NCBI GenBank assembly: GCA_963528475.1
Contig: CAURVP010000002.1
Span: 3,187-67,186 of the forward strand
From: an uncultured Candidatus Saccharibacteria bacterium
Lineage (GTDB): Bacteria; Patescibacteriota; Saccharimonadia; Saccharimonadales; Saccharimonadaceae
DNA: 64,000 bases
Direction: 5' to 3'
In this document: positions 5,688 to 45,052 of the stretch, one piece after another
How positions within the stretch are numbered: the first letter of the stretch is position 1
How the letters are laid out: each line of letters starts with the position of its first letter
Program-made: the position numbers and the translations under genes
Notes under the pieces: generated by a model
What the model was told of the DNA's origin: nothing
Databases searched by the model: none
The model's input: the letters and a program-made list of their open reading frames with translations, nothing else

Positions 5688-6503
5688 CTAAGACAACAAC
5701 TGATGAATGCGCGATGTAATATGGAGCCGCGCTGCCCGAGCGGCTTTATGCCAGCCAACCGATGCGAAACGCTGAGCATAGCTACTATATACTGCATTTT
5801 CTTCTGCAAAGCGCACGCCATCCTTTGACTTTTCCTTGCTTGAGAGCGACTGGGCAAAGCGCCGGTATTGGAATGTCTCAGTCTGATCAAAAGCAAGTAC
5901 TGCTCCGTCAAGAATAAAATCAAATACCAAGACAAGATCTTCTAGTATAGTATACGTCGCATCAAAGGAGTACCGCTTAAGTGTCGCTGTCTTCCAGACA
6001 ATCGATGGGAAGTAGAGCCAGTCGCCATGACTCAGAGACGTTGCGAGCTTTTCGCCTGAGTAAAGCCCCGATTTACGAGGCTGCAAAAATCGCTTAACAC
6101 GGTCAACCAATGGGAGATATAGCTGCCCCTTATCATTAATCACTTGCACTCCTGGCTGATAAAAATCTGCCTCACCAATTGTCTGTAGTGCTACTGCTAC
6201 GCACTCCGGCAAGAGCCGATCATCACACCCCACAATCATACAGTGTGGTGCCGTTACGTGCTGGACGGCAAAGTTGAAGTTATTGGTAATGCCGAGGTTT
6301 TTCTTGTGTCGGATATAGGTGATGCGTGAATCGGCGAGTTTTGTGTAATAATCGCGTGCTTCGGTCGATGGGTAGTGATCATCAAGAATGGTCAGGTGCC
6401 AGTCGTCGCTCGTCTGAGCCAAGACAGAGTCAACCGCTTCTTTGAGAAGAGCGAATTCGCCCCAGTAAGGGATGACGATATCGAGTGATTTATTTTTTGT
6501 CAT
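5688..6503 (-). CDS. Glycosyltransferase family 2
   Basis: ORF 5688..6632 trimmed to MTKNKSLDIVIPYWGE (ATG 6503). It has GT-A N-terminal beta-strand/helix and ILDD acidic motifs. Overlaps the upstream gene stop by 14 nt. Confidence 0.75.
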   Translation of the reverse strand: MTKNKSLDIVIPYWGEFALLKEAVDSVLAQTSDDWHLTILDDHYPSTEARDYYTKLADSRITYIRHKKNLGITNNFNFAVQHVTAPHCMIVGCDDRLLPECVAVALQTIGEADFYQPGVQVINDKGQLYLPLVDRVKRFLQPRKSGLYSGEKLATSLSHGDWLYFPSIVWKTATLKRYSFDATYTILEDLVLVFDFILDGAVLAFDQTETFQYRRFAQSLSSKEKSKDGVRFAEENAVYSSYAQRFASVGWHKAARAARLHITSRIHQLLS

Positions 6504-6849
6504 GAGCCGAGAGTTTAATTGACAATTCTTGATGGAGGTCGCGCACGCGGCGTTCGTTTTGGTCAATCCGCTGGCGCTGCGTGTTGACGATGTAGAAGAG
6601 TAACACAATCGCTGTCGTCTGGACAATATCAAACAAGCTCAATTCCGACGAATCAAACGGTGGGTGGCCAATCGAAATATTATACAACGGGAAGCAGCTT
6701 AGCAGCACTGCCATCACTACCAGCCACATCACCACCTGGTGGCGCAGACGAGTGATAGTGATCTTGCGTAATTTATATTGGGTGATGATATTGACGAGCG
6801 CCAAGAGAATAATTGGCACATTGAGTAAGACAAGGGCAAAGTATCTCAT
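6490..6849 (-). CDS. Small membrane protein, DUF2304/GacJ-like
   Basis: 119 aa with 3-4 TM helices and a charged coiled tail. Overlaps by 4 nt the stop of the GT2 gene upstream of it in the operon (6846-7565). This pairing is known for streptococcal GacI/GacJ. Confidence 0.6.
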   Translation of the reverse strand: MRYFALVLLNVPIILLALVNIITQYKLRKITITRLRHQVVMWLVVMAVLLSCFPLYNISIGHPPFDSSELSLFDIVQTTAIVLLFYIVNTQRQRIDQNERRVRDLHQELSIKLSAHDKK

Positions 6850-7565
6850 TCGAAGAGCTCCGTTAAGCGTTGTTTGAATAAGCGTTTGACGATATTGATG
6901 GCATTCCAGTTGTTTTGACCTTTAGCACGGGAGTAGTCGGTGTAGATTGCCTTGATTGGGTATTCACCAATTGTCATCCCCGCTTGCTTGGCACGCCAGA
7001 TCATCTCCGAGCAAAATTCGTAACCAGTTGACTTCCAGTCGAGGTCATCAATGGCGCGGCGCGAATAGATACGTAGGCCAGACTGTGAGTCCGTCACATT
7101 AATACCAAATAAGAGCTTGGTGATCAAACTCAAGCCTTTATTGCCGAGCACTTTTGTCTTGGACATACCGGTGCTGTCAATGAGACGACTGCCAATGAGC
7201 AAATCGGCTTGGCGCTCATCGATCTGCGTGATGCCTGCCAATACATCTTCTGGCGCGTGCTGGCCATCGGCGTCCATCGTGGCGGCAATGTCATATCCAT
7301 GCTGCCGAGCATACGATAGACCAGTTAATGTTGCGCCGCCCGCACCAGAGTTAAGGATATGATCGATCGTAATGGCACCACCTTTTTTAGCTTGGGTAAG
7401 TGTGTCGTCCTTCGATCCATCATTTACCAGCACAACGTCGATCGTATAGCCAGCCGCCTTGGCTTTGGCAAAGACTCGCTTGGATTGTCTGATCACGTCC
7501 TTGATGACCGTCGCTTCATTGTAGGCTGGGACGATCACGCACACTGTCTTGGTATTCGTTTTCAT
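6846..7565 (-). CDS. GT2 polyprenol-phosphate glycosyltransferase (GacI/GtrB-like)
   Basis: VCVIVPAYNEATVI, NDGSKDDT and MDADGQH motifs typical of dolichol-P/undecaprenol-P sugar synthases. Confidence 0.75.
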   Translation of the reverse strand: MKTNTKTVCVIVPAYNEATVIKDVIRQSKRVFAKAKAAGYTIDVVLVNDGSKDDTLTQAKKGGAITIDHILNSGAGGATLTGLSYARQHGYDIAATMDADGQHAPEDVLAGITQIDERQADLLIGSRLIDSTGMSKTKVLGNKGLSLITKLLFGINVTDSQSGLRIYSRRAIDDLDWKSTGYEFCSEMIWRAKQAGMTIGEYPIKAIYTDYSRAKGQNNWNAINIVKRLFKQRLTELFE

Positions 7566-32981: not shown

Positions 32982-34103
32982 ATGGCGAAGCGAGATTATT
33001 ATGAGGTGCTTGGTGTTGCCAAAAGCGCCAGCGATGATGACATTAAGCGGGCATTCCGCAAATTGGCAGTGAAGTACCACCCAGATAAAGCGGGTGGGAG
33101 TGAAGAGAAATTCAAAGAGATCAACGAAGCGTATGAGGTCCTGAAGGACAAGCAAAAGCGCCAGCGGTATGACCAATTTGGCCATGCGGGCGTTGGTGGT
33201 GCTGCCAGCGGTAGTGGTGGCGGTAACCCATTTGCTGGCTTTGGCGACTTTGGCCAGGGGCAGAATATCCACTTTGATTTTGGTGATGGTGGTCTAGGAG
33301 ATATCTTTGGCCAGTTCTTTGGTGGTGCTGCTGGTGGCAGTGCAAGCCAAGGCCCGTCACGCGGTCGTGATGTTGAGACGAGTGTGACGCTCGAATTTGA
33401 AGAAGCGATCTTTGGCAAAGAAGTTGCTCTTGCACTAACACTTGATGACGAATGTGAGCATTGCCACGGTAGTACCGTCGAGCCCGGCTCAAGCCTTAAG
33501 AGCTGTCCAGATTGTAAAGGCACTGGCCAGCGCGTGCGGACAATGAATACAATGTTTGGCCCCATTCAGCAGGCGGTAACGTGTGAGACATGCCAAGGCC
33601 GGGGGAAGATTCCTGAGAAGGCCTGTACAGTCTGCCAAGGTAGCGGTGTGCAGCGCCGCGAGCAAACGATTACCGTCAAGATTCCCGCTGGTATCGATAA
33701 TGGCTCGACGATTCGTCTCCGTGGTCGTGGTGAAGCTGTCGGTGGTGGCAGCAAGGGCGACCTCTATGTGCAGGTGCGAGTCAATCCACACAAGACGTTT
33801 AGCCGTGAAGGTGATGTGATCCTGAGTGAGGAGCATATTGGTATGGCAGATGCAGCGCTTGGTGCCGAGCTCGACGTTAAGACAGTCGATGGGACGATTA
33901 CAATGAAGGTGCCAGCTGGTACGCAATCGGGCACTGACTTCAAGTTATCTGGTCACGGCGTGCCACACATGCGAAGCGACAAGCGTGGGCCTCATATCGT
34001 GACAGTAGTGGTCGACACCCCAACCAAACTAAACCGCCGCCAGAAGGAAATCCTCCGCGAGTTTAATGACACATTAGGGCGGAAGGGGATATTTGGGTTG
34101 TAA
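32982..34103 (+). CDS. dnaJ: Molecular chaperone DnaJ
   Basis: [12 protein letters not shown], a KYHPDK (HPD) motif, a G/F-rich linker, and four CxxCxGxG repeats. No dnaK or grpE lies adjacent. Confidence 0.95.
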
Positions 34104-34281
34104 CTCCAGGTAGGTACTGGTGTAGAATTAAACTACTTGTGGTGAAGGGTTTGATTCTAATCTGTTTGCTGGGTGGTGTAACTTTGCTAGATCATTTCAA
34201 AATTCGATAACGGAAACGTGGCTTTGCTCACAGTGCTCTGCAAATATAAGAGAAAGAGTCTTGATTTATACGGTGGTTTAT

Positions 34282-34290
34282 TGCTAAAAT
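34282..34290 (+). promoter_or_regulatory. Extended -10 box TGcTAAAAT in front of the ATP-grasp/peptidase cassette
   Basis: 9 nt upstream of ATG 34300. Confidence 0.45.
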
Positions 34291-34299
34291 AGCCTCACT

Positions 34300-35877
34300 A
34301 TGATGACGAGTTATACTCCCGAGAATAGACCACTTCCATCTCATGGTATGCAGGTGAAAGAAGCTCGGCGTAGCCAGAATAGCTCTGTCGATATAGATCC
34401 TGAAGTGTTCCGAGGAAAGTACCAGGAACTTGTCGAGCGATCACCGAAAGTTATTGAATCACTTGTTCCCGATCAAGAAAGCAAAGAAGTGGCAATTGAC
34501 AGTCTAATTACAGGTAGTACCACGTCTTTTCAGCAAAAGTATCCGGTCATTGAGAAGTATTCCGACGAAGATTATACAACCATGCAAGATACTGCAGAAA
34601 CGCTGATGTCTATGGCTGAGTCTATGTCAGAGCCAGAGAGGACAGTCTATCTCCAGGCGATTGAGGCTCGCAAGCAAGAGGCGAACTTGATAGTAGCGAT
34701 GAGGGATTATAAAGCAGCAGCAGATCCAATAGCAAGAGAAGCAGCAGCACAACGTTTTATGGAGATAAATATTACGCTCTATGGTGAGCCAGATAAAACA
34801 ACATATGAGTCATTACTCGGCGAAAAAATTGCCAACATCTTTCATAAAAAGCGCAGTCAAAGCGCCGAGATAATCTTTCAGGAGCTTCGGAATCTTCTTC
34901 CAGAAAATGTAATAGATGGTACACGTGCACAAGATCGATTTCGTCCATCTACTGAGACTATGAGATGGATGAACGAAGTTGTTCATGGATTGTATGACAA
35001 TATGCTTCGACATGTTGATAGCTATGTAGAAGCGCATAAATCGGAGCTTCAAATAGAATCACACGATGAGACGGTTATAAAAATCCAGCCGACACACCTT
35101 CAAGATATCTTTCGGAATATCTTGACTGAGGAATTCCTTGCGTCATCCAAAGAGACTGAAGAAAGTAGCCAGACAGGTGATACACAGGGTGCACAAGCTG
35201 CGACAGACTGGGATAATACCGAGACGAGAAGTGCTGAGAAAGATACGGGTTGGAAGATTGAGGTGACAGAGGCAAAATCGATCAATGTTGATCCAGATAC
35301 GAGACATATCAGAATACCCCAAGACCGAGAAGCTATGTCTGTTAATGAAGTAAAACGGCTAGTTGTGCACGAAATAGGCGTGCATGTCTTAACGCGAATG
35401 ACTGGTGGTTCAACAAACCTTGAGCCGCTCGCACAGGGCTTAGCTGGTTTTAATGATACACAAGAAGGGCTTGGGAAAGCAATGGAACACGCCCTTGAAG
35501 GAGAATATCAAGAAGCTGGTATAGATCACTATATTACTGCTGGGCTTGCCTATTTTGACAACAAGGATTTCAAAGGTGCTTATGATGTGAAGTGGCGTCT
35601 CAAACTTCTCGAGAGCCTCAAGCCTGATCAAACACCAACACAAGCACAGATTGACAAAGCCAAGCAATGGGCAGCAAACACAACAATGCGTATCTACCGG
35701 GGTACTGATGATCTGCCACTCTTTAAGGATCTCTGCTATTACAATGGGTCGAAAGAAGTATGGGAGTATCTAGAGAAAATTTGTGGTGATGATTTGCAGC
35801 TGAGTTTATTATTAGCTGGTAAAATTAATACCTCAAAGAAGCACCAGAGAGTCATACTTGAATCACATAGTACTTAA
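34300..35877 (+). CDS. DUF1704/MATCAP-like putative metallocarboxypeptidase (HExxxH + QEGL motif)
   Basis: VHEIGVH (35368-35385) is followed about 25 residues later by TQEGLG (35461-35475). This pairing defines the 'QEGLA motif' DUF1704 family as I recall it. The N-terminal half is long, acidic and unrecognised. Confidence 0.6.
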   Translation: MMTSYTPENRPLPSHGMQVKEARRSQNSSVDIDPEVFRGKYQELVERSPKVIESLVPDQESKEVAIDSLITGSTTSFQQKYPVIEKYSDEDYTTMQDTAETLMSMAESMSEPERTVYLQAIEARKQEANLIVAMRDYKAAADPIAREAAAQRFMEINITLYGEPDKTTYESLLGEKIANIFHKKRSQSAEIIFQELRNLLPENVIDGTRAQDRFRPSTETMRWMNEVVHGLYDNMLRHVDSYVEAHKSELQIESHDETVIKIQPTHLQDIFRNILTEEFLASSKETEESSQTGDTQGAQAATDWDNTETRSAEKDTGWKIEVTEAKSINVDPDTRHIRIPQDREAMSVNEVKRLVVHEIGVHVLTRMTGGSTNLEPLAQGLAGFNDTQEGLGKAMEHALEGEYQEAGIDHYITAGLAYFDNKDFKGAYDVKWRLKLLESLKPDQTPTQAQIDKAKQWAANTTMRIYRGTDDLPLFKDLCYYNGSKEVWEYLEKICGDDLQLSLLLAGKINTSKKHQRVILESHST

Positions 35878-35891
35878 ACTAAATACGAGCA

Positions 35892-37259
35892 ATGAAAGTT
35901 CAATACGATAAAAGTTTAAAGATAGCAGGCGTTAGTATACAACCATGGGCAAGAATTGGGCCTGAGCAGTGGTTTGATAATTACAAAATTGCTTCACTAG
36001 CTGGCTGGAATATGCGCAGTCAGAATGTAGAGCACATGAATAGTCTCGCTTATATGCGCGATCAGTGCGAGAGACCTTATACAGGTGAACTGACTACACA
36101 GGCTCTTTTGCAAGATCCAATATTCCAAGACATGATAATAACTCATTTACCTGAGTACCGTATTTTTACGTATAAACCTTTTATAATTCCTGAGCGATTG
36201 AAACAAAGCAGTTTGCATTTTTTGCCTAGAAACGATATGTACGTGTTGGCTCAGAAGTTTGAGAATAAATCACGGTTTCGGCGTATTTTTGCAGAGCGTC
36301 TTTGCAATATTCCACCACATAAAATATACCCTTGGCGAGAAATGTTATCGGATGAGGGATATTTTTCTAATCTCTGTGATGGACGTAGTAAGATTGTTTT
36401 GCAGGATGCTGCACTTGGTGGAGGGAAGGGGTCGTTTATTATCGATAGCTTCGAGTCGTTCTGTTCTGCAATAAATACAATGCAAAATAGCAATGGTTTG
36501 GTTGGTGAAGTAGTTGTATCAGACTACATTGCTGATGGCCGTGATTGGTCGGTGCAGGGCGTTGTAACGCGCTATGGGGTCTTCGTAGGGCCAGTGCAGC
36601 GGCAGATTATTGCAGACCCGAATTTATCAAATACAAGTATTCCTGGTACTGAGAAGTTTTGCGGTATTGAAATATTGGCAGATGATCAACACACATGGCA
36701 GAGTAGTCAATTAACGAAAAATGCACGCGTCATAGGCCAGGAATTATACGACAGAGGGTATCGTGGTATTTTTGGTGTTGATTCTTTGGTAACGGATGAT
36801 GCAGTGTATACTATCGAAGTTAACGCACGCATTACGGGTGCAACGCCGCTTCTTACAATGAGCTATAATGCAAAGAAGCATATCCCCTTCTATCTTCTTC
36901 ATATTTTAGAACTAACGAATGCTGATTATACTATTGAAGACAGCTCATACAGTAATGACTATAATGATTGCGCGCTGATGGTTCTCCATCAACGAGACAG
37001 TGAGACAGGTGTCGCTGACAGCCCTCGGTCGGGATTATATAATGAAAAGATGCAAATCATAGGCGATATAATGTCATTCGATAGGTCTTCCTATGCAAAA
37101 CAGGTTTTTGTACAGGATTATACAAGGAGCGAGAGGTCTATTGCGCAAGGGTCTCGATTGGCGTCTATATTTACTAATTTTCGTGTTATGGATGAGGAGG
37201 GTGTGCTTATGAGAGAATCAAGAAATATTATTGATATAATTGAAAATAGTTCGAAGTAA
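35892..37259 (+). CDS. ATP-grasp ligase, uncharacterised subfamily
   Basis: Glycine loop LGGGKGSFII and a Mg/ATP block GIFGVDSLVTDDAVYTIEVNARITG (E-x-N intact). Starts 14 nt after the upstream stop. Confidence 0.6.
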   Translation: MKVQYDKSLKIAGVSIQPWARIGPEQWFDNYKIASLAGWNMRSQNVEHMNSLAYMRDQCERPYTGELTTQALLQDPIFQDMIITHLPEYRIFTYKPFIIPERLKQSSLHFLPRNDMYVLAQKFENKSRFRRIFAERLCNIPPHKIYPWREMLSDEGYFSNLCDGRSKIVLQDAALGGGKGSFIIDSFESFCSAINTMQNSNGLVGEVVVSDYIADGRDWSVQGVVTRYGVFVGPVQRQIIADPNLSNTSIPGTEKFCGIEILADDQHTWQSSQLTKNARVIGQELYDRGYRGIFGVDSLVTDDAVYTIEVNARITGATPLLTMSYNAKKHIPFYLLHILELTNADYTIEDSSYSNDYNDCALMVLHQRDSETGVADSPRSGLYNEKMQIIGDIMSFDRSSYAKQVFVQDYTRSERSIAQGSRLASIFTNFRVMDEEGVLMRESRNIIDIIENSSK

Positions 37260-37273
37260 ATAAATGTATCGCT

Positions 37274-38782
37274 ATGAATATGGAGCAAGAAAGCAATAAT
37301 AATATCAAAAAAGCAGACCTGTCACGGTATAGCATTACCTCTCGATTACTAATGAAGGAGGCACTTCGAAAAGGGTACCAGGTCACAACAGTTCCAGGTC
37401 GTTTAGCAACATCACATGTGGTGCGCTGTGAAAAGGACGGCAAAGAGCTTTACTTTTATAATCTTAATACTGCACTAAACCCTTCATATGCAGTTCAGGT
37501 GAATGAGGACAAGATCTGGACGAATAACATATTACACCAATCGCATATACAAATACCAGATACATATCCATTAAAAATAAATAGACCCGAAGACGTGGTA
37601 ATTGACGATACACTTCGAAAAATGCTAGAGTCTCATGAGTATCTTGTAGTTAAACCTGCTACAGCAAACTACAGCGATGATACTCCTGTTAGCGCTGGTG
37701 ACGAAGAAAGTTTGCTTCGTGCAATACACCATGTGTATCAGAATAGTGGTGGACAGCCTGAGGTGATTGTTCAGCAAATGGTTTTTGGGCAAGAATATCG
37801 CTTCTTGGTGTTAAATAAAAAAGTCATTGCAGTAGCATATCGTCGACCACCATATGTTGTTGGAGATGGAGTATCAACAATACGAACCTTGATAAGTAGA
37901 AAAAATAATAATTGCTTAAAGCATGACAACAGACACGCTAGTTTAGTAGCAAAAATAAACATCGAAGATGTGTCGAGACATGAAGGTGCTCACTTTTTGC
38001 AACAAGTTCCCGAGAAAGGTCGTGCTGTTGAGGTTTTAGATACATTGAATCTGAGCAGGGGTGGTGAAGCGGTTGATGTCACGAGTTATGTGTCTGATGA
38101 ACTCAAAACCATAGCAATTCAAGCGGCATCAGCATGTTTTCTTGGTATTGCTGGTATTGATATTGTAACGGATAACATTAGTGGCGATGGAAATGATAGC
38201 TATGTCGTAAGAGTGAAGGCATCTCCAGGGATACGAATGCACCAATTTCCAACAGAAGGCAAACCTCGGAATGTTGCACGAAAACTATTTCATGCTATTG
38301 AAAAAACGGCGCATCCTATCGGCAAAAAGATAGTTATGATTGGCCGAGTTGAAAAGGTTGCTTTGCCTGATCTTGTTAACGAAAAATTTAAAGCTCGGAT
38401 AGATACAGGGGCAACAGTCTCGTCTATATGGGCAAGTGATATTCGAGTTGATAAGACAGGCCTCTATTGCAAACTATTTGGTGAAGGCTCCCCAGTGTAT
38501 ACTGGTGAGGAGTTGCATTTTTCTGAGTATTCCATGCGCTCTGTTCGGAGTTCGAATGGTTATGAGGAATTGCGGTATCAAGTTGTCATTAATGTAAGTT
38601 TGGCAGGAAGGCGAGTGAAAGCAAAAGTTACACTAGCAGACAGATCGGGGCAGATCTACCCAATGCTGATTGGAAGAAATATTTTGCGTAATAAATTCAT
38701 CGTTCATGTTGCAGAGGGTGATATTGATAAGAAGGCCGAAAGTAGTAATCGTCAAGAACTACGCCAAAATGGACTACAATAG
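37274..38782 (+). CDS. Fusion: cyanophycin-synthetase-like ATP-grasp module with degenerate catalytic motifs + DUF785/RimB-like retropepsin aspartic peptidase
   Basis: EYRFLVLNKKVIAVAYRRPPYVVGDGVSTIRTLI and NLSRGG resemble the cyanophycin synthetase/GshAB ATP-grasp. The E-x-N block reads VVRVKASPGIRMH, and the Gly loop reads KPATANYSDD. The C-terminal part has RIDTGAT (D-T-G 38402-38410) and LIGRNIL. Confidence 0.65.
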   Translation: MNMEQESNNNIKKADLSRYSITSRLLMKEALRKGYQVTTVPGRLATSHVVRCEKDGKELYFYNLNTALNPSYAVQVNEDKIWTNNILHQSHIQIPDTYPLKINRPEDVVIDDTLRKMLESHEYLVVKPATANYSDDTPVSAGDEESLLRAIHHVYQNSGGQPEVIVQQMVFGQEYRFLVLNKKVIAVAYRRPPYVVGDGVSTIRTLISRKNNNCLKHDNRHASLVAKINIEDVSRHEGAHFLQQVPEKGRAVEVLDTLNLSRGGEAVDVTSYVSDELKTIAIQAASACFLGIAGIDIVTDNISGDGNDSYVVRVKASPGIRMHQFPTEGKPRNVARKLFHAIEKTAHPIGKKIVMIGRVEKVALPDLVNEKFKARIDTGATVSSIWASDIRVDKTGLYCKLFGEGSPVYTGEELHFSEYSMRSVRSSNGYEELRYQVVINVSLAGRRVKAKVTLADRSGQIYPMLIGRNILRNKFIVHVAEGDIDKKAESSNRQELRQNGLQ

Positions 38783-38836
38783 AGACAGAGAGCATATAAT
38801 AAGCAAAATCGATAAAATAATAGTACGAGGTATGGA

Positions 38837-39754
38837 GTGAAAATCGCAATACTCAGTAACGGCAATGTGAACTACTCAACGCTTCGCCTCAAGGAAGAGG
38901 CGGAGAGGCGCGGACACAGTGTGAGAGTGATTAAATACCGCAAATGTTATGTGACGATTGATGAGAAGAATCCAACGGTGATGTATGATGGTGAAGCAAT
39001 TGATCAGTACGATGCAATAATTCCGCGCATTGCAAGCTATATGACTCGCTACGGCACAGCAGTAGCACGTCAGTTAGAAATGGCGTATCCACGCACACTT
39101 TTTGTTAATCGCTCGATTGCGATTACCCGGGCGCGCGATAAACTGCGCTCGACACAGCTGTTAGCTCGAGGCGGGGTAGCTATTCCTAAGACAGTGTTTA
39201 GTCGTAACTCAGCCGATATAGACGATCTCCTTAACGAACTTGGTGGTACGCCAGTTATCATCAAGCTAGCTCGTGGTACTCATGGCAATGGTGTAGTGTT
39301 GGCAGAGACGAAGAAGGCGGCAAAGTCGGTGCTCCAGGCGCTGTACCTCACCAATGAGGATGGGACGAATATTCTCTTGCAAGAATTTATTCGTGAGTCG
39401 GCTGGAGTGGATATCCGTGCCTTTGTGGTGGGGAGCCGTGTGGTGGCGAGTATGAAGCGCCAGAGCCTAGATGACGACTTTCGCTCTAATCTCCACAAAG
39501 GAGGCGAAGGAACGCCGATCCGCTTAACGGATACCGAGCGTCGCATGTGTTTGCGGGCAGCTAAGGCGATGGGCTTGACGGTGGCGGGTGTTGACTTTAT
39601 GCGCTCGAGTCGTGGGCCGCTAGTGCTTGAGGTCAATGCGAGCCCAGGCTTTGGGATAGAGAAAATTACGCGGCGTAATGTAGCCAAACCGATCATTGAA
39701 TATATTGAGCGCAATGCCAAGCGGCAGCACAAGAAGGATCGTGTTGGGGCATAA
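38837..39754 (+). CDS. rimK: RimK-type alpha-L-glutamate ligase (ribosomal protein S6 modification family)
   Basis: GTG start. VIIKLARGTHGNGVVL, LLQEFI and GPLVLEVNASPGF are all canonical. 305 aa. Confidence 0.85.
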   Translation: MKIAILSNGNVNYSTLRLKEEAERRGHSVRVIKYRKCYVTIDEKNPTVMYDGEAIDQYDAIIPRIASYMTRYGTAVARQLEMAYPRTLFVNRSIAITRARDKLRSTQLLARGGVAIPKTVFSRNSADIDDLLNELGGTPVIIKLARGTHGNGVVLAETKKAAKSVLQALYLTNEDGTNILLQEFIRESAGVDIRAFVVGSRVVASMKRQSLDDDFRSNLHKGGEGTPIRLTDTERRMCLRAAKAMGLTVAGVDFMRSSRGPLVLEVNASPGFGIEKITRRNVAKPIIEYIERNAKRQHKKDRVGA

Positions 39755-39805
39755 CCATTCAAACGTATTTGCTTTTCTCATAACGCTTATGTTGAATTGG
39801 TGTCA

Positions 39806-39814
39806 TGGTATAAT
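39806..39814 (+). promoter_or_regulatory. Extended -10 box TGgTATAAT, 6 nt before ATG 39821
   Basis: Read directly from the sequence. Confidence 0.5.
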
Positions 39815-39820
39815 GATGGC

Positions 39821-40303
39821 ATGATGTTGCTTGGATTGCTTGCTGGCATGGCTGTGGTTTTGGCTGGTTTGGTATATGTAGCGAAGCGGCATTTTGGGCT
39901 ACCAGTCATAGGCCTGGCGGTTGGTATGGTAATGACACAGCTGTGGGCGGCAGATGTCGTGCCGTATGCTGCTGGGGTTGGCATAGGCATTGACCGGTCT
40001 GCTTTGCTTGCGATGGTGACGATTGTGCTGACGGTGCTACCAGCTGTGGTGCTGGTGTGTTGCGGCTCGGTGGTGAGTCAGCGCTGGTGGCGAATTGGTG
40101 GCTCGCTTGTCTTTGGTATTATGGCGGTGTATGTGCTGTTTGGTGCGCTGAGTAGCTTCGTGCCAGTTGATGAGACAAGCAAGACGGTTGTGGCAGCACT
40201 GGACGGGTCTCATGCAGCGGTTGTAACGATAGGGTTTGCATGTGCACTTGTTGACACGCTCGTGGCTTGCGCAAAGGGCGCAAAACCACACAAGAAAAAG
40301 TAG
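39821..40303 (+). CDS. Small integral membrane protein, unknown function
   Basis: Start set to ATG 39821 because TGgTATAAT (39806-39814) lies inside the longer ORF, 6 nt upstream. Has 4-5 TM helices and a basic tail. Confidence 0.55.
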   Translation: MMLLGLLAGMAVVLAGLVYVAKRHFGLPVIGLAVGMVMTQLWAADVVPYAAGVGIGIDRSALLAMVTIVLTVLPAVVLVCCGSVVSQRWWRIGGSLVFGIMAVYVLFGALSSFVPVDETSKTVVAALDGSHAAVVTIGFACALVDTLVACAKGAKPHKKK

Positions 40304-40361
40304 AAAGCTATTGTCTCAGCGTAGGTCTCAGACCTGCAGTGCGTCCTGTTTGTTATATAAA

Positions 40362-40384
40362 ACGACCCTCGAGCTGAGGGTCGT
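40362..40384. terminator. Hairpin between the convergent membrane-protein gene and yebC
   Basis: ACGACCCTC (40362-40370), loop GAGCT, GAGGGTCGT (40376-40384). The U-tract is weak. Confidence 0.45.
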
Positions 40385-40437
40385 AATACAACTATGCGTA
40401 TAAGCAAACACTTGCTGGGTATTGTTCGGTAGTATGA

Positions 40438-41142
40438 TTACGCGGCATTTGTCGCAACGTTTGTTACATCATCGAGTGCTTCAAGTGCGTCGATAATTTT
40501 GGTAAGCTTGCGGGCGGTCTCATCATCCTCGATAGCAACGGTGTTGTTGGGCACATACTGGAGCTCTGCATCTTCAACGGTCATGCCAGCTGCGAGCAAA
40601 GCTTCGCGAACTTTGGCGAGCTCCTTTTTGTCGGTGTAGACAGTGAGGCCACCATCTTCTTCTGTTGCATCTTCAGCACCAGCATCAAGCACAGTAAGGA
40701 GCGCTTCTTCACCACTAGCTGCTACGCGGATCACGCCCTTGCGCGCAAACTGAAACATCACACTGCCGCTATCTGCCATGGTGCCACCATTCTTGGTGAG
40801 AGCGGTGCGGACCTCTGGATAGGTGCGGTTTTTGTTGTCGGTTGCTGTCTCGATAATGATGCCAACACCACCTGGGCCGTAGCCCTCATAGACTGCTTCT
40901 TCGAGTGCGGCAGCATTTTTATCATTGATGCGATCAATTGCTCGCTGGATGTTAGCGTTGGGCATGTTAGCTGCCCGAGCTTTCTCGATGGCCAATGCGA
41001 GACTTGAGTTGGTTGTTGGATCGGTGCCGCCACGGGCTGCGATGGCAATCATATTGCCAAGCTTGGTAAAGGCTGCGCCGCGCTTTGCATCAACCACGGC
41101 CTTTTGGCGATGGGTCGTGGCCCATTTACTGTGTCCAGACAT
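40438..41142 (-). CDS. yebC: YebC/PmpR family DNA-binding regulator
   Basis: MSGHSKWATTHRQKAVVDAKRG N-terminus. 234 aa. SD aaggaga is present, and TGcTACAAT (minus) lies at 41175-41183. Confidence 0.9.
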   Translation of the reverse strand: MSGHSKWATTHRQKAVVDAKRGAAFTKLGNMIAIAARGGTDPTTNSSLALAIEKARAANMPNANIQRAIDRINDKNAAALEEAVYEGYGPGGVGIIIETATDNKNRTYPEVRTALTKNGGTMADSGSVMFQFARKGVIRVAASGEEALLTVLDAGAEDATEEDGGLTVYTDKKELAKVREALLAAGMTVEDAELQYVPNNTVAIEDDETARKLTKIIDALEALDDVTNVATNAA

Positions 41143-43091: not shown

Positions 43092-43276
43092 GTTGTATCT
43101 GTTTGAAACCCTAAAGATCCGCATTATAAAATCTTAATTCCTATTTCTCGCTATTATTGTGCGGTAGAGAACAAAATCCGACCACCGTATTAGTTTGCGC
43201 AATTAACAAAACAATGTGCTTGTGCTTGACCAAGAGGATTGCTTTGCGCATAATCGTGGCGAGGAGGAAAAACAAA

Positions 43277-45052
43277 ATGCAAACTATGCGGAATTATGCC
43301 CAGCGAATCGTTGCATATGGGCTTGCCGTTACCATGATGATACCAGGAATAGCTGGAGCTTCTGCGCTTGGTGTTGATTCTTCCACTGCTCATTTCGCCA
43401 CCATCGGCGATTTTTTATTTGAGCGGGCAGTAGCGCGTGATGCTGTTGCTAGCAGTGAACCGACAGCAGCACAGCCTGTAGTGCGTCTTGCCGCTCATAC
43501 TGAACACGATGCATTGATGATTGGAGCACTCCACACAACAGACCGGCGTACGGTGAGTGCAGTTGAGCTGCATAATACTACGCGTCAGTTTGCACCGCTT
43601 AGTGATGTCGCGCTTGTTGTCAGTGTTAGCACAAACCACACCGACTACACGTGCCGCGTCAATCTACAAGGATATGCACCACCCCAGTCGTCGGTGCGCT
43701 ACTACCATCCAGCAGTGGCCCCGGCAGATGGCGCACAGCTCCAGGGTTGCCCAAGTGTACCAAATGATGAGCAAATCACGCGGTATGATGTGACGCTGGA
43801 GAGATCTGGTGCAACTATTGACAAAGCAAGCGCAGCCGTAGACGAGCTTGCAGGTGCACTCGTCTGGGAGCGTGCACGCTGGACGGCAGCGGCACGGACT
43901 GGGATATTCGCCAAGGACTTTCGAGCACGAGCTGGCGAAGCTGAGGTAACTGCGCCGTACGAAACGCCAGGCGAGCCATCATTGCAAATTCTTGAGGTCT
44001 TGCCTCATCCACACACCTGCGACGCAGCACCAGATAATTGTCAAAAATATGTCAAGATCAAAAATACCGGCGACCAGCCAATCGACCTTGCTACCTATCG
44101 TTTGCGTAGTGGTACGTCTGGCAGCAATAGTACTGTGCGAAATACCTCGTCTCTTGCGGGGACTATTGCGCCAGGCCAGGTGCTGACGATCCGGACTCAG
44201 GCAAATGGTGCGGAACTTGCAATATTGCGTAGTGGTACACTGTGGTTTGAGGACCAGTATGGCCTAGTGAGCTTTTCGCCGCGCATTGATGCATATAGCG
44301 GTGCAGGACAGGCTGCGCACCAGGGTAAGTCTTGGGCATACAATTCGCAAACTGGCGCGTGGCAATGGACAACGCCAAGCCCCGACCAAGCCAATAATAT
44401 CATCACTGATACACCAGCCTCACCTCATCAGCCATCGGGCAAACCGTGCCCCGCTGGCCAAGAACGCAACCCAGCAACAAATCGTTGTCGGAAAATCAAC
44501 AGTAGTGAGAAACAGTCAAGACAAACAACCGGTAATGCAAAGGTGGCGCGCAGCACTTCTCATGCTCAAAAGCTAACCATCTGCAAACCAGGCCAAGAGC
44601 GCAACCCCGCAACGGGCCGTTGCCGCGCAGCATCTGCCACTGGCCAGCAATTGGCCGTGTGCAAGGCGGGGCAGTATCGCAATCCTGCCACAGGGCGCTG
44701 CCGAGCGCTCGCTGGTGGTAAGACACCAGCTGCTGTATGTCAAGCAGGGTACTATCGCAACCCCGCGACTGGCCGCTGCAAAAAGCTTGGCGCAGCAAAT
44801 AGTCGCCAGCTGACGCCCTGCAAGCCAGGCTGGGAGCGTAATCCATCGACCAATCGCTGCCGCAAATCGACGAGCAAGAATAGCAAAGCACCAGCCGCAG
44901 GCTACGCTGTTGAGCCGGGTAGTTATAATGGGCAGACAGAGATTATCTGGTGGATGATTGGTGGGGTAGCCATCGTGGCGGTGGGCTATGCTGGCTGGGA
45001 GTGGCGTAGTGAGATTGGCCAGTGGCTACGCCGGATGGTGCGCAAAGGTTAG
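43277..45052 (+). CDS. Secreted, C-terminally anchored surface protein with a lamin-tail-like domain and five Cys-bracketed basic repeats
   Basis: Start set to MQTMRNY after SD ggagga. Has a signal-like N-terminus. LQILEVLPHP...YVKIKNTGDQPIDLATYRL resembles an LTD. There are five C-x2-G-x2-RNP-x-T-x-RC-[RK] units and a terminal TM helix. Confidence 0.6.
   Translation: MQTMRNYAQRIVAYGLAVTMMIPGIAGASALGVDSSTAHFATIGDFLFERAVARDAVASSEPTAAQPVVRLAAHTEHDALMIGALHTTDRRTVSAVELHNTTRQFAPLSDVALVVSVSTNHTDYTCRVNLQGYAPPQSSVRYYHPAVAPADGAQLQGCPSVPNDEQITRYDVTLERSGATIDKASAAVDELAGALVWERARWTAAARTGIFAKDFRARAGEAEVTAPYETPGEPSLQILEVLPHPHTCDAAPDNCQKYVKIKNTGDQPIDLATYRLRSGTSGSNSTVRNTSSLAGTIAPGQVLTIRTQANGAELAILRSGTLWFEDQYGLVSFSPRIDAYSGAGQAAHQGKSWAYNSQTGAWQWTTPSPDQANNIITDTPASPHQPSGKPCPAGQERNPATNRCRKINSSEKQSRQTTGNAKVARSTSHAQKLTICKPGQERNPATGRCRAASATGQQLAVCKAGQYRNPATGRCRALAGGKTPAAVCQAGYYRNPATGRCKKLGAANSRQLTPCKPGWERNPSTNRCRKSTSKNSKAPAAGYAVEPGSYNGQTEIIWWMIGGVAIVAVGYAGWEWRSEIGQWLRRMVRKG
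44447..44866 (+). repeat. Five in-frame coding repeats, C-x2-G-x2-RNP-x-T-x-RC-[RK]
   Basis: The first Cys codons are at 44447, 44582, 44660, 44738 and 44819. The spacings are 45, 26, 26 and 27 codons. Confidence 0.85.

Follow-up and report, generated by a model that had tools for sequence, protein, structure and literature searches.

A predicted pseudo-ligase fused to a RimB-like protease in one human-oral clade of Saccharibacteria

What remains of a ligase domain that has lost its catalytic residues but is still translated in frame with a protease? This question is raised by an open reading frame (ORF) at positions 37274 to 38782 of a 64,000-nucleotide stretch of DNA (the window) from an uncultured Candidatus Saccharibacteria bacterium (GenBank assembly GCA_963528475.1, contig CAURVP010000002.1, positions 3,187 to 67,186). 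The ORF, which lies on the forward strand like the four neighboring genes described below, encodes a 502-residue fusion protein that combines an apparently dead ATP-grasp ligase with a RimB-like protease, as judged from the open frame, domain profiles, alignments to the cyanophycin synthetase CphA1, and an AlphaFold2 model. It offers a clean natural case in which one half of a fusion enzyme dies while the other half is under strong selection. An original prediction, made from the sequence without database searches, had proposed that the ATP-grasp half is a pseudo-ligase kept as a recognition domain that presents a growing tail or polymer to the protease. Our own reading, to which we assign a probability of about 0.55, is that the protein belongs to a normally intact CphA1-G/GshF-RimB family and that, in one oral clade, the dead ligase half is kept as a structural module on a working protease, with the product of the neighboring gene ORF2 serving as the replacement ligase.

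An ATP-grasp module precedes a RimB-like protease domain

Residues 1 to 345 (37274 to 38308) are predicted from TIGR02068, PRK02471, and Foldseek to form a CphA1-G/GshF-type ATP-grasp module that has kept its fold and lost catalysis; the module itself spans residues ~15 to 345. The NCBIfam cyanophycin synthetase profile TIGR02068 covers residues 71 to 342 (E = 8.6e-57), although the match is restricted to the G-like part of the profile (positions 205 to 470 of 862) and scores 192.7 bits against a cut-off of 850, and the fusion protein does not have the three-domain N, G, and M architecture of cyanophycin synthetases. The GshAB profile covers residues 20 to 341 (E = 1.6e-43), whereas the match to rimK_fam is far weaker (46.2 bits, E = 3.6e-12). 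These profiles and HMMER alignments to CphA1 agree with the earlier suggestion that the N-terminal part resembles the CphA/GshAB ATP-grasp.

An AlphaFold2 model built on 93 homologs had a predicted local distance difference test (pLDDT) score of 89.4 and a predicted template modeling (pTM) score of 0.80. Its best Foldseek matches in the PDB were CphA1 (7wac/7lgq; E = 3e-25 to 7wac) and GshAB (3ln6/3ln7; E = 5e-23 to 3ln6), followed by RimK. The modeled structure retains the ATP-grasp fold over the whole module.

Residues 346 to 502 (38309 to 38782) constitute a RimB-like, retropepsin-type aspartic endopeptidase domain. PF05618 (Zn_protease/RimB-like, Pfam) matches residues 355 to 486 over profile positions 1 to 136 of 138 (E = 1.2e-15, 58.1 bits against a cut-off of 27). 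Since the NCBIfam RimB model (NF052261; E = 4.9e-12) scores 45.9 bits against an equivalog cut-off of 200, we refer to the domain as RimB-like rather than as a RimB equivalog; NCBIfam RloA models also match this half, likewise below their equivalog cut-offs. Its DTGA and L-x-G-R motifs anchor an alignment with two RloA-type structures, 9g59 and 2pma. The DTGA catalytic motif, which contains D377, lies at 38402 to 38413 and aligns to the DTGA of 9g59; the LIGRNIL motif of the retropepsin-like fold lies at 38666 to 38686. Both signatures had been read correctly in the original prediction, and D377, G379, and A380 of the D-T/S-G active-site motif are invariant in the fusion family. Relatives of the fusion protein are annotated at NCBI merely as "RimK/LysX family protein."

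The ATP-grasp site has lost its phosphate-loop glycines and two of three Mg ligands

Motifs were placed by residue-by-residue HMMER alignments to solved CphA1 structures, and roles were assigned by combining these alignments with those published for TeCphA1 residues (PMC9427784). Both phosphate-binding lysines of active CphA1-G/GshF ligases are present in the window protein. K80 (37511 to 37513), the equivalent of the beta-phosphate Lys K220 of TeCphA1, is K or R in the clade that shares the lost site (here called the dead clade), with R in 4 of 13 members; K127 (37652 to 37654) is the equivalent of the alpha-phosphate Lys K261.

The loop that follows is degraded. P-loopG of TeCphA1 (residues 263 to 269) corresponds to window residues 129 to 135, with H267 at the position of Y133, and KPATANYSDD is aligned opposite KPLDGNHGRG of CphA1, so the Gly-rich NHGxG expected of an active ligase reads ANYSDD. 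Over the whole degenerate loop ATANYSDD (37658 to 37681), the family has xTNHGDG, and the changes are H133Y, G134S, and G136D, all at positions invariant in 92 intact members, which upholds the degraded loop of the original prediction. The H-to-Y change is not inactivating by itself, since GshF has Tyr or Phe there (PMC9427784).

The original prediction had also listed VIVQ, which aligns with VIVE of CphA1, as the loss of an acidic residue. The letters are correct, yet Q167 (37772 to 37774) is the family-wide state and not an inactivating change: no residue has been lost here, because Gln is invariant across the fusion family and common among intact relatives (Q in 56 and E in 66 of 122 mostly intact representatives).

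At the metal site, HMMER sets vvRvKAsPG opposite vEvNAaPG, and R313-V314-K315 (38210 to 38218) stands in place of the E-x-N Mg site. The Mg ligand E450 of TeCphA1 has become R313, and N452, which from general knowledge of ATP-grasp enzymes we take to be the N of E-x-N, has become K315. D296 (38159 to 38161; TeCphA1 D431) is the sole Mg ligand kept, leaving D296, R313, and K315 where the D...E-x-N triad would be. The R-V-K replacement had been placed exactly (R at 38210 to 38212, K at 38216 to 38218), and the concern that equivalents of E-x-N and the P-loop might be present but shifted is answered by the alignments, in which R-V-K and ATANYSDD lie opposite the canonical motifs. A further change, found by column comparison, is H217 (37922 to 37924), which replaces the invariant Arg of the family's DPRRG motif.

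Several substrate-side residues remain. R176, in E174-Y175-R176 (37793 to 37801), is the equivalent of R309, which stabilizes the acyl-phosphate in TeCphA1; it is kept in the window and is H in the assembly L001. N259 of the NLSRGG loop (38048 to 38065) corresponds to the substrate-contacting N394, G319 to the oxyanion residue G456, and R321 to R458, which binds the substrate carboxylate; all three are kept. The window protein therefore has the two lysines, R176, the NLSRGG loop, and one Mg ligand, while both loop glycines and the E-x-N pair are gone.

Across 92 intact family members, 111 columns show conservation of 90% or more. The dead clade departs from them at 14 columns, every one of which falls within the ATP-grasp half, and six of these (H133, G134, G136, R217, E313, and N315) are 100% invariant in the intact members. 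These replacements support the view, already part of the original prediction, that the ATP-grasp half has become a pseudo-ligase without catalytic activity; it is predicted to be unable to make the acyl-phosphate because it has lost the phosphate-loop glycines and two of the three Mg ligands.

It is very improbable that the domain is still an enzyme, with a ligase or other nucleotide-dependent activity that runs by noncanonical chemistry in which, for example, Arg and Lys replace the Mg ions. The presence of K80, K127, Q167, E174, R176, and D296 in the window protein, and of positive side chains at the former metal site, would suit such chemistry. However, both loop glycines have been lost and an Asp has been brought in at position 136; K80R, P128S, and R176H vary within the clade; and R313 and K315 are themselves not conserved, the motif being G-V-K in three assemblies (L016, L087, and L088) and R-V-M in one (L018). 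Moreover, R-x-K occurs in 0 of 117 intact relatives.

The fusion is widespread and normally intact

A search of 5.8 billion proteins returned 177 relatives, of which 120 were listed. More than 90 of these 120 share the ATP-grasp-then-RimB architecture, mostly with an intact site, which is the outcome of the database survey that had been proposed for the fusion. Where an organism is named, it is a member of the Saccharibacteria or of another lineage of the candidate phyla radiation (CPR). Nearly all listed fusion relatives carry the NHGDG loop and E-V-N; the degraded loop with R-V-K occurs, among the listed relatives, only in the query and in proteins at least 89% identical to it (P0001 to P0007). 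When 1.84 billion cluster representatives (50%-identity clusters) were searched with a profile, 122 had an aligned ATP-grasp. E-x-N is intact in 117 of them, including 22 of 22 other fusion-type representatives, and R-x-K is found solely in the query.

In a genome collection, 12 GTDB species representatives (L007 to L018) belonged to the dead clade, and look-ups of neighboring proteins added L001, L087, and L088, the last from a human oral metagenome. The dead-site substitutions are shared by the 12 species representatives and four further assemblies (~16 in total), which rules out an assembly artifact or a strain-specific mutation as their source. By these sequence comparisons, Saccharibacteria widely carry the fusion, as a rule with an intact catalytic site, and the predicted dead state is confined to one human-oral clade of ~16 assemblies.

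The fusion family also includes a second lineage that has degenerated independently (P0079, P0083, and P0232; L006, where P0083 lies at 6001 to 7290). Its loop reads ARRGN or ARHGN, and ~70 residues including the NLSRGG loop have been deleted; E-V-N and the protease domain have been kept.

The dead half evolves under weaker constraint than the protease half

The dead state appears lineage specific and derived. To common outgroups, the ATP-grasp half of the query lineage shows a divergence of 0.90 to 0.93 versus 0.68 to 0.75, or ~0.2 extra substitutions per site, whereas its protease half shows no excess. The ratio of amino acid divergence between the ATP-grasp and protease halves is 2 to 10 in the dead clade but 0.4 to 2.0 in 51 intact pairs.

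We then compared the two halves by the pooled ratio of nonsynonymous to synonymous differences (pN/pS) among 13 full-length genes of the clade, with bootstrap confidence intervals (CIs). The pooled pN/pS was 0.317 for the ATP-grasp half (CI, 0.23 to 0.43) and 0.056 for the protease half (CI, 0.02 to 0.11), relative to 0.010 for RimK, 0.020 for DnaJ, 0.157 for ORF2, and 0.248 for the MATCAP-type gene described below. Against the deeper sister L088, the ratio of nonsynonymous to synonymous substitution rates (dN/dS) of the ATP-grasp half was 0.23 at a dS of 0.37, which resembles the values for ORF2 (0.18) and MATCAP (0.15); the protease half had a dN/dS of 0.03 and RimK, whose protein is identical, of 0. 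The dead half is thus under weaker but real constraint, with a dN/dS well below 1 out to a dS of ~0.37.

None of the 31 conserved columns of the protease half varies in the dead clade (0/31). This strong purifying selection marks the protease half as the likely working part of the fusion. RimB cleaves poly-Glu tails, stimulates RimK, and forms a homodimer, and its D31 is essential (PMC11957791); by analogy, the protease half is presumably a dimeric endopeptidase that acts on poly-Glu-type tails and modulates RimK.

The pattern of variation within the dead half differs from that of intact proteins. Family-conserved columns vary in 19 of 80 cases and nonconserved columns in 71 of 265 (Fisher's P = 0.66), whereas in seven intact groups whose divergence is comparable or higher, 0 to 5% of conserved and 9 to 52% of nonconserved columns vary (for example, 4/80 versus 97/265, P = 3e-9). 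Positions freed in the dead clade include K80R, P128S, R176H, N259D, G264A, and G319E. The family's site-specific constraints on this half thus appear to have been lifted since catalysis was lost.

This pattern bears directly on the proposal that the dead ATP-grasp domain is a reader that would bind the product of RimK or ORF2, an acidic tail or polymer, and hand it over to the protease, or eraser, to which the domain is fused. A dN/dS of 0.23 to 0.32, clearly below 1 and held to a dS of 0.37, would be expected of a domain with such a role, and the substrate-side R176, N259, NLSRGG loop, and R321 are still found in the window protein. E313R and N315K place positive charges at the former Mg positions, and dead-clade ATP-grasp halves have net charges of +1 to +11, compared with a mean of -2 (standard deviation, 4.8) in intact members. 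Since RimB recognizes the poly-Glu tail alone (PMC11957791), an added tail-binding module is also plausible. Nevertheless, intact members span a range of net charge that includes this shift, and the window protein itself carries just +1; R176, N259, G264, and G319 are among the positions that vary within the clade, as do R313 and K315 themselves; and the RimB of Pseudomonas, like that of many Saccharibacteria, functions with no such domain attached. Because pocket residues are no longer preferentially conserved in the dead clade, a reader that uses the old pocket is unlikely, and on this point the conservation pattern speaks against the original prediction.

Given that dN/dS is still about 0.23 to 0.32, there is room for a new binding function with a constraint pattern of its own, which we also regard as doubtful. 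In its broadest form, this alternative would make the domain a true pseudo-enzyme that has acquired another function, either as a tail or polymer reader or as an allosteric partner of RimK and ORF2, coupled to the RimB eraser; we consider this improbable as well. If true, oral Saccharibacteria would carry a writer-reader-eraser cassette for C-terminal amino acid tails, made up of two peptidases (a MATCAP-like carboxypeptidase and the retropepsin-like protease), two active ATP-grasp ligases, and a pseudo-ligase.

ORF2 probably replaced an earlier ligase upstream of the fusion

The fusion gene is the third of five co-directional, closely packed genes (34300 to 40303). The first encodes a homolog of MATCAP/QEGLA-type metallocarboxypeptidases (34300 to 35877; HEIGVH and QEGLG motifs; PF08014, E = 1.6e-20). 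ORF2 (35892 to 37259) encodes a 455-residue ATP-grasp_3-type ligase, identified from profiles and a motif read-out, whose E-V-N is intact (IEVNAR). RimK (38837 to 39754; 305 residues; NCBIfam PRK10446, E = 1.2e-95), whose gene starts 54 nucleotides 3' of the fusion ORF, likewise has an intact E-V-N (LEVNASPG), so both neighboring ligases are as the original prediction had read them. The last gene encodes a 168-residue hydrophobic protein (39797 to 40303) that, by locus comparison, occupies the slot of DUF192 in other Saccharibacteria.

The linkage of rimB to rimK is kept across Saccharibacteria loci. Their stable core consists of RimB (as a domain or a separate gene), RimK, and usually DUF192, while the upstream ligases are interchangeable. 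The closest intact relatives (L002, L090, L005, and L023) have a ~330-residue GSH-S/RimK-type ATP-grasp gene (GRASP330), the 3' end of which overlaps the 5' end of the fusion gene. In all dead-clade genomes, this slot is taken by ORF2, with MATCAP before it. In other loci, the slot holds a CphA-G-like paralog (L004) or two RimK-like genes (L025), and L019 has no ligase there, DnaJ being directly upstream of its intact fusion.

The ORF2 family is widespread in Saccharimonadales, and ORF2-type ATP-grasps are also fused ahead of a RimB domain (P0160 and P0170, 604 residues; P0215, 595 residues; L089, 2654 to 4468). RimB is therefore fused behind at least two ligase types in these loci, besides the published RimBK. 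In L069, an ORF2-family gene adjoins stand-alone RimB and RimK genes without a CphA-like domain. ORF2 is thus a probable functional replacement partner of RimB, and the simplest reading of the synteny is that it displaced the earlier ligase pair in this role.

We also considered a stricter rule, that catalytic death always follows the loss of GRASP330. It fits both degenerate lineages and the closest sisters but is broken by L019 and L004, and we treat it as no more than suggestive. The 382-residue upstream gene of L006 was examined as a possible GRASP330 relative and is unrelated, with no Pfam match.

Several further features of the locus were recorded. Nine of 13 related assemblies, as well as L088, share one and the same RimK protein (100% identity) despite a synonymous divergence of 0.2 to 0.39 (dN/dS, 0 to 0.01), a constraint much stronger than that on the adjoining DnaJ or YebC (L001, L007 to L018, and L088). 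The MATCAP, ORF2, and fusion genes (34000 to 38000) have a G+C content of 0.40 to 0.43 versus ~0.50 in the flanks, and a pS among species of 0.12 to 0.14 versus 0.19 to 0.23 for RimK, DnaJ, and YebC; the cassette could be of foreign origin or have been exchanged more recently within the clade. A scan of 33900 to 40500 for promoters and terminators gave counts not above those of shuffled sequences, and an E. coli S6 query found no rpsF in the window.

DUF192 (PF02643) follows rimK in L002, L004, L005, L019, L025, L028, L042, L058, L066, L069, L081, and L085, often with a gene for a ~160-residue protein after it; the dead clade instead has a hydrophobic protein of 160 to 185 residues. Divergent MATCAP-like proteins (419 to 518 residues) are encoded upstream of ligase/RimB/RimK cassettes in L005 (1498 to 4139), L021 (2385 to 3644), and L024 (5402 to 6958), and in L005 a MATCAP-like gene is followed by a Mur-ligase-like gene (416 residues) that recalls the M domain of cyanophycin synthetase. 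The MATCAP homolog of L013 (4070 to 5500) is truncated to a 476-residue ORF, of which the first ~446 residues alone align to the window protein. Farther downstream, the window encodes a 631-residue protein (43157 to 45052) whose orthologs match a lamin-tail domain and that has, near its C terminus, approximately six tandem Cys-bracketed motifs (C-x-x-G-x-x-R-N-P-x-T-x-R-C-R) followed by a transmembrane segment.

The dead half may persist as a structural module

The sequence of events that we favor would start from an ancestral, Saccharibacteria-wide arrangement in which a CphA1-G/GshF-like ligase was fused ahead of a RimB-type endopeptidase, directly upstream of the conserved rimK. The synteny suggests that ORF2 then took the upstream slot, which probably made the CphA-like ligase half redundant. 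In one human-oral clade, the redundant half would have lost the glycines of its phosphate loop and, of its three Mg ligands, all but one. Most likely, it was then kept as a folded structural module, that is, as an N-terminal scaffold, dimerization element, or docking element for the protease. We infer such a scaffold role from the residual purifying selection on the dead half.

The competing view that we take most seriously, while judging it unlikely, is slow decay: a functionless ligase half persists in frame before a needed protease, and its constraint reflects only the need to be translated without misfolding. The loss of the ancestral site pattern would be expected under decay, as would the second degenerate lineage, which degraded its loop and lost its NLSRGG region yet kept its protease. 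Even so, ~1 kb of coding sequence has stayed at full length in 15 of 16 dead-clade assemblies and in clusters with more than 250 member sequences, in genomes of a sort that is typically small and streamlined, and no large deletions are seen in the dead clade. Furthermore, the bootstrap CI of pN/pS (0.23 to 0.43) excludes 1, and the dN/dS of 0.23 at a dS of 0.37 is near that of the neighboring, presumably active enzymes.

Some observations weigh against a retained structural role and its link to ORF2. In L017, a 10-bp deletion inside the degraded phosphate loop (about 7390 to 7400) shifts the frame, and the ORF resumes at the equivalent of residue 147, although this deletion may be an assembly error. 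Beta-strand positions of the dead half vary like coil positions (33% versus 29%), whereas a strict fold-only constraint predicts otherwise. Many Saccharibacteria have a stand-alone RimB, which is common, or a split gene. Because of these genes and the L017 frameshift, the ATP-grasp domain would be dispensable in principle, and slow decay fits these facts equally well. Lastly, L019, with an intact fusion and DnaJ upstream, and L004, with a different partner, show that the link between the loss of GRASP330 and the loss of catalysis is not strict.

Taken together, the comparisons make a sound case for the pseudo-ligase as a clade-level event in a single clade, while the role that the domain retains is inferred. 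Since intact sister lineages allow direct comparison, the dead and intact fusions together are well suited to the question of what use a dead ATP-grasp domain still has. The cassettes themselves may merit more attention than the dead domain: elaborate rimB-rimK cassettes are widespread in Saccharibacteria and can include as many as three or four ATP-grasp ligases, in many cases alongside a MATCAP-type carboxypeptidase, and these multi-ligase, two-peptidase arrangements, together with the occurrence of RimB behind at least two different ATP-grasp ligases, point to where new RimB substrates may be sought.

Comparison with known systems

In the literature searched, no paper dealt with Saccharibacteria and RimK together, the texts contained nothing on MATCAP with ATP-grasp or on DUF785/COG4067/DUF1704, and TTLL12 was the sole ATP-grasp pseudo-enzyme noted.

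Both RimB and a RimB-ligase hybrid, RimBK, were already known. Like RimB of the Pseudomonas fluorescens RimABK system (PMC11957791), the window domain belongs to PF05618, has the DTGA and L-x-G-R motifs, and is encoded directly upstream of rimK; unlike it, the domain sits behind a 345-residue ATP-grasp module, is not accompanied by a rimA, and scores below the equivalog cut-off. RimBK of Desulfotalea psychrophila (DP2392) also unites a RimB domain and an ATP-grasp ligase in one polypeptide, but there the RimB domain is N-terminal and the ligase is RimK; its protease part is active, and no RpsF glutamylation was seen (PMC11957791). In the window protein, the order is reversed, the ATP-grasp is CphA1-G/GshF-like rather than RimK, a separate intact RimK follows, and, in the dead clade, the Mg/phosphate site has been lost.

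In both sequence and structure, residues ~20 to 345 match the G domain of CphA1 and the ATP-grasp of GshF/GshAB best. The CphA1-G/GshF family has in common a His-containing P-loop, R309, N394, R458, and the Mg ligands (PMC9427784), whereas the window protein is without the N domain and the Mur-ligase-like M domain of CphA1, and its P-loop glycines, E450, and N452 have been replaced. A precedent for a dead half is provided by CphA2, whose M ligase domain is truncated and inactive and has outlasted the need for its reaction (PMC10273328). As in the window protein, catalysis has been lost and the ligase domain has stayed in the polypeptide; however, the CphA2 domain has a Mur-ligase-like fold, is truncated, and is inactive family-wide, whereas the dead domain described here is full length and restricted to one clade. 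TTLL12, also a multidomain protein, likewise keeps a domain with the ATP-grasp fold in which no ligase activity has been detected (PMC3520985), although it is eukaryotic, has an unrelated sequence context, and is not fused to a protease.

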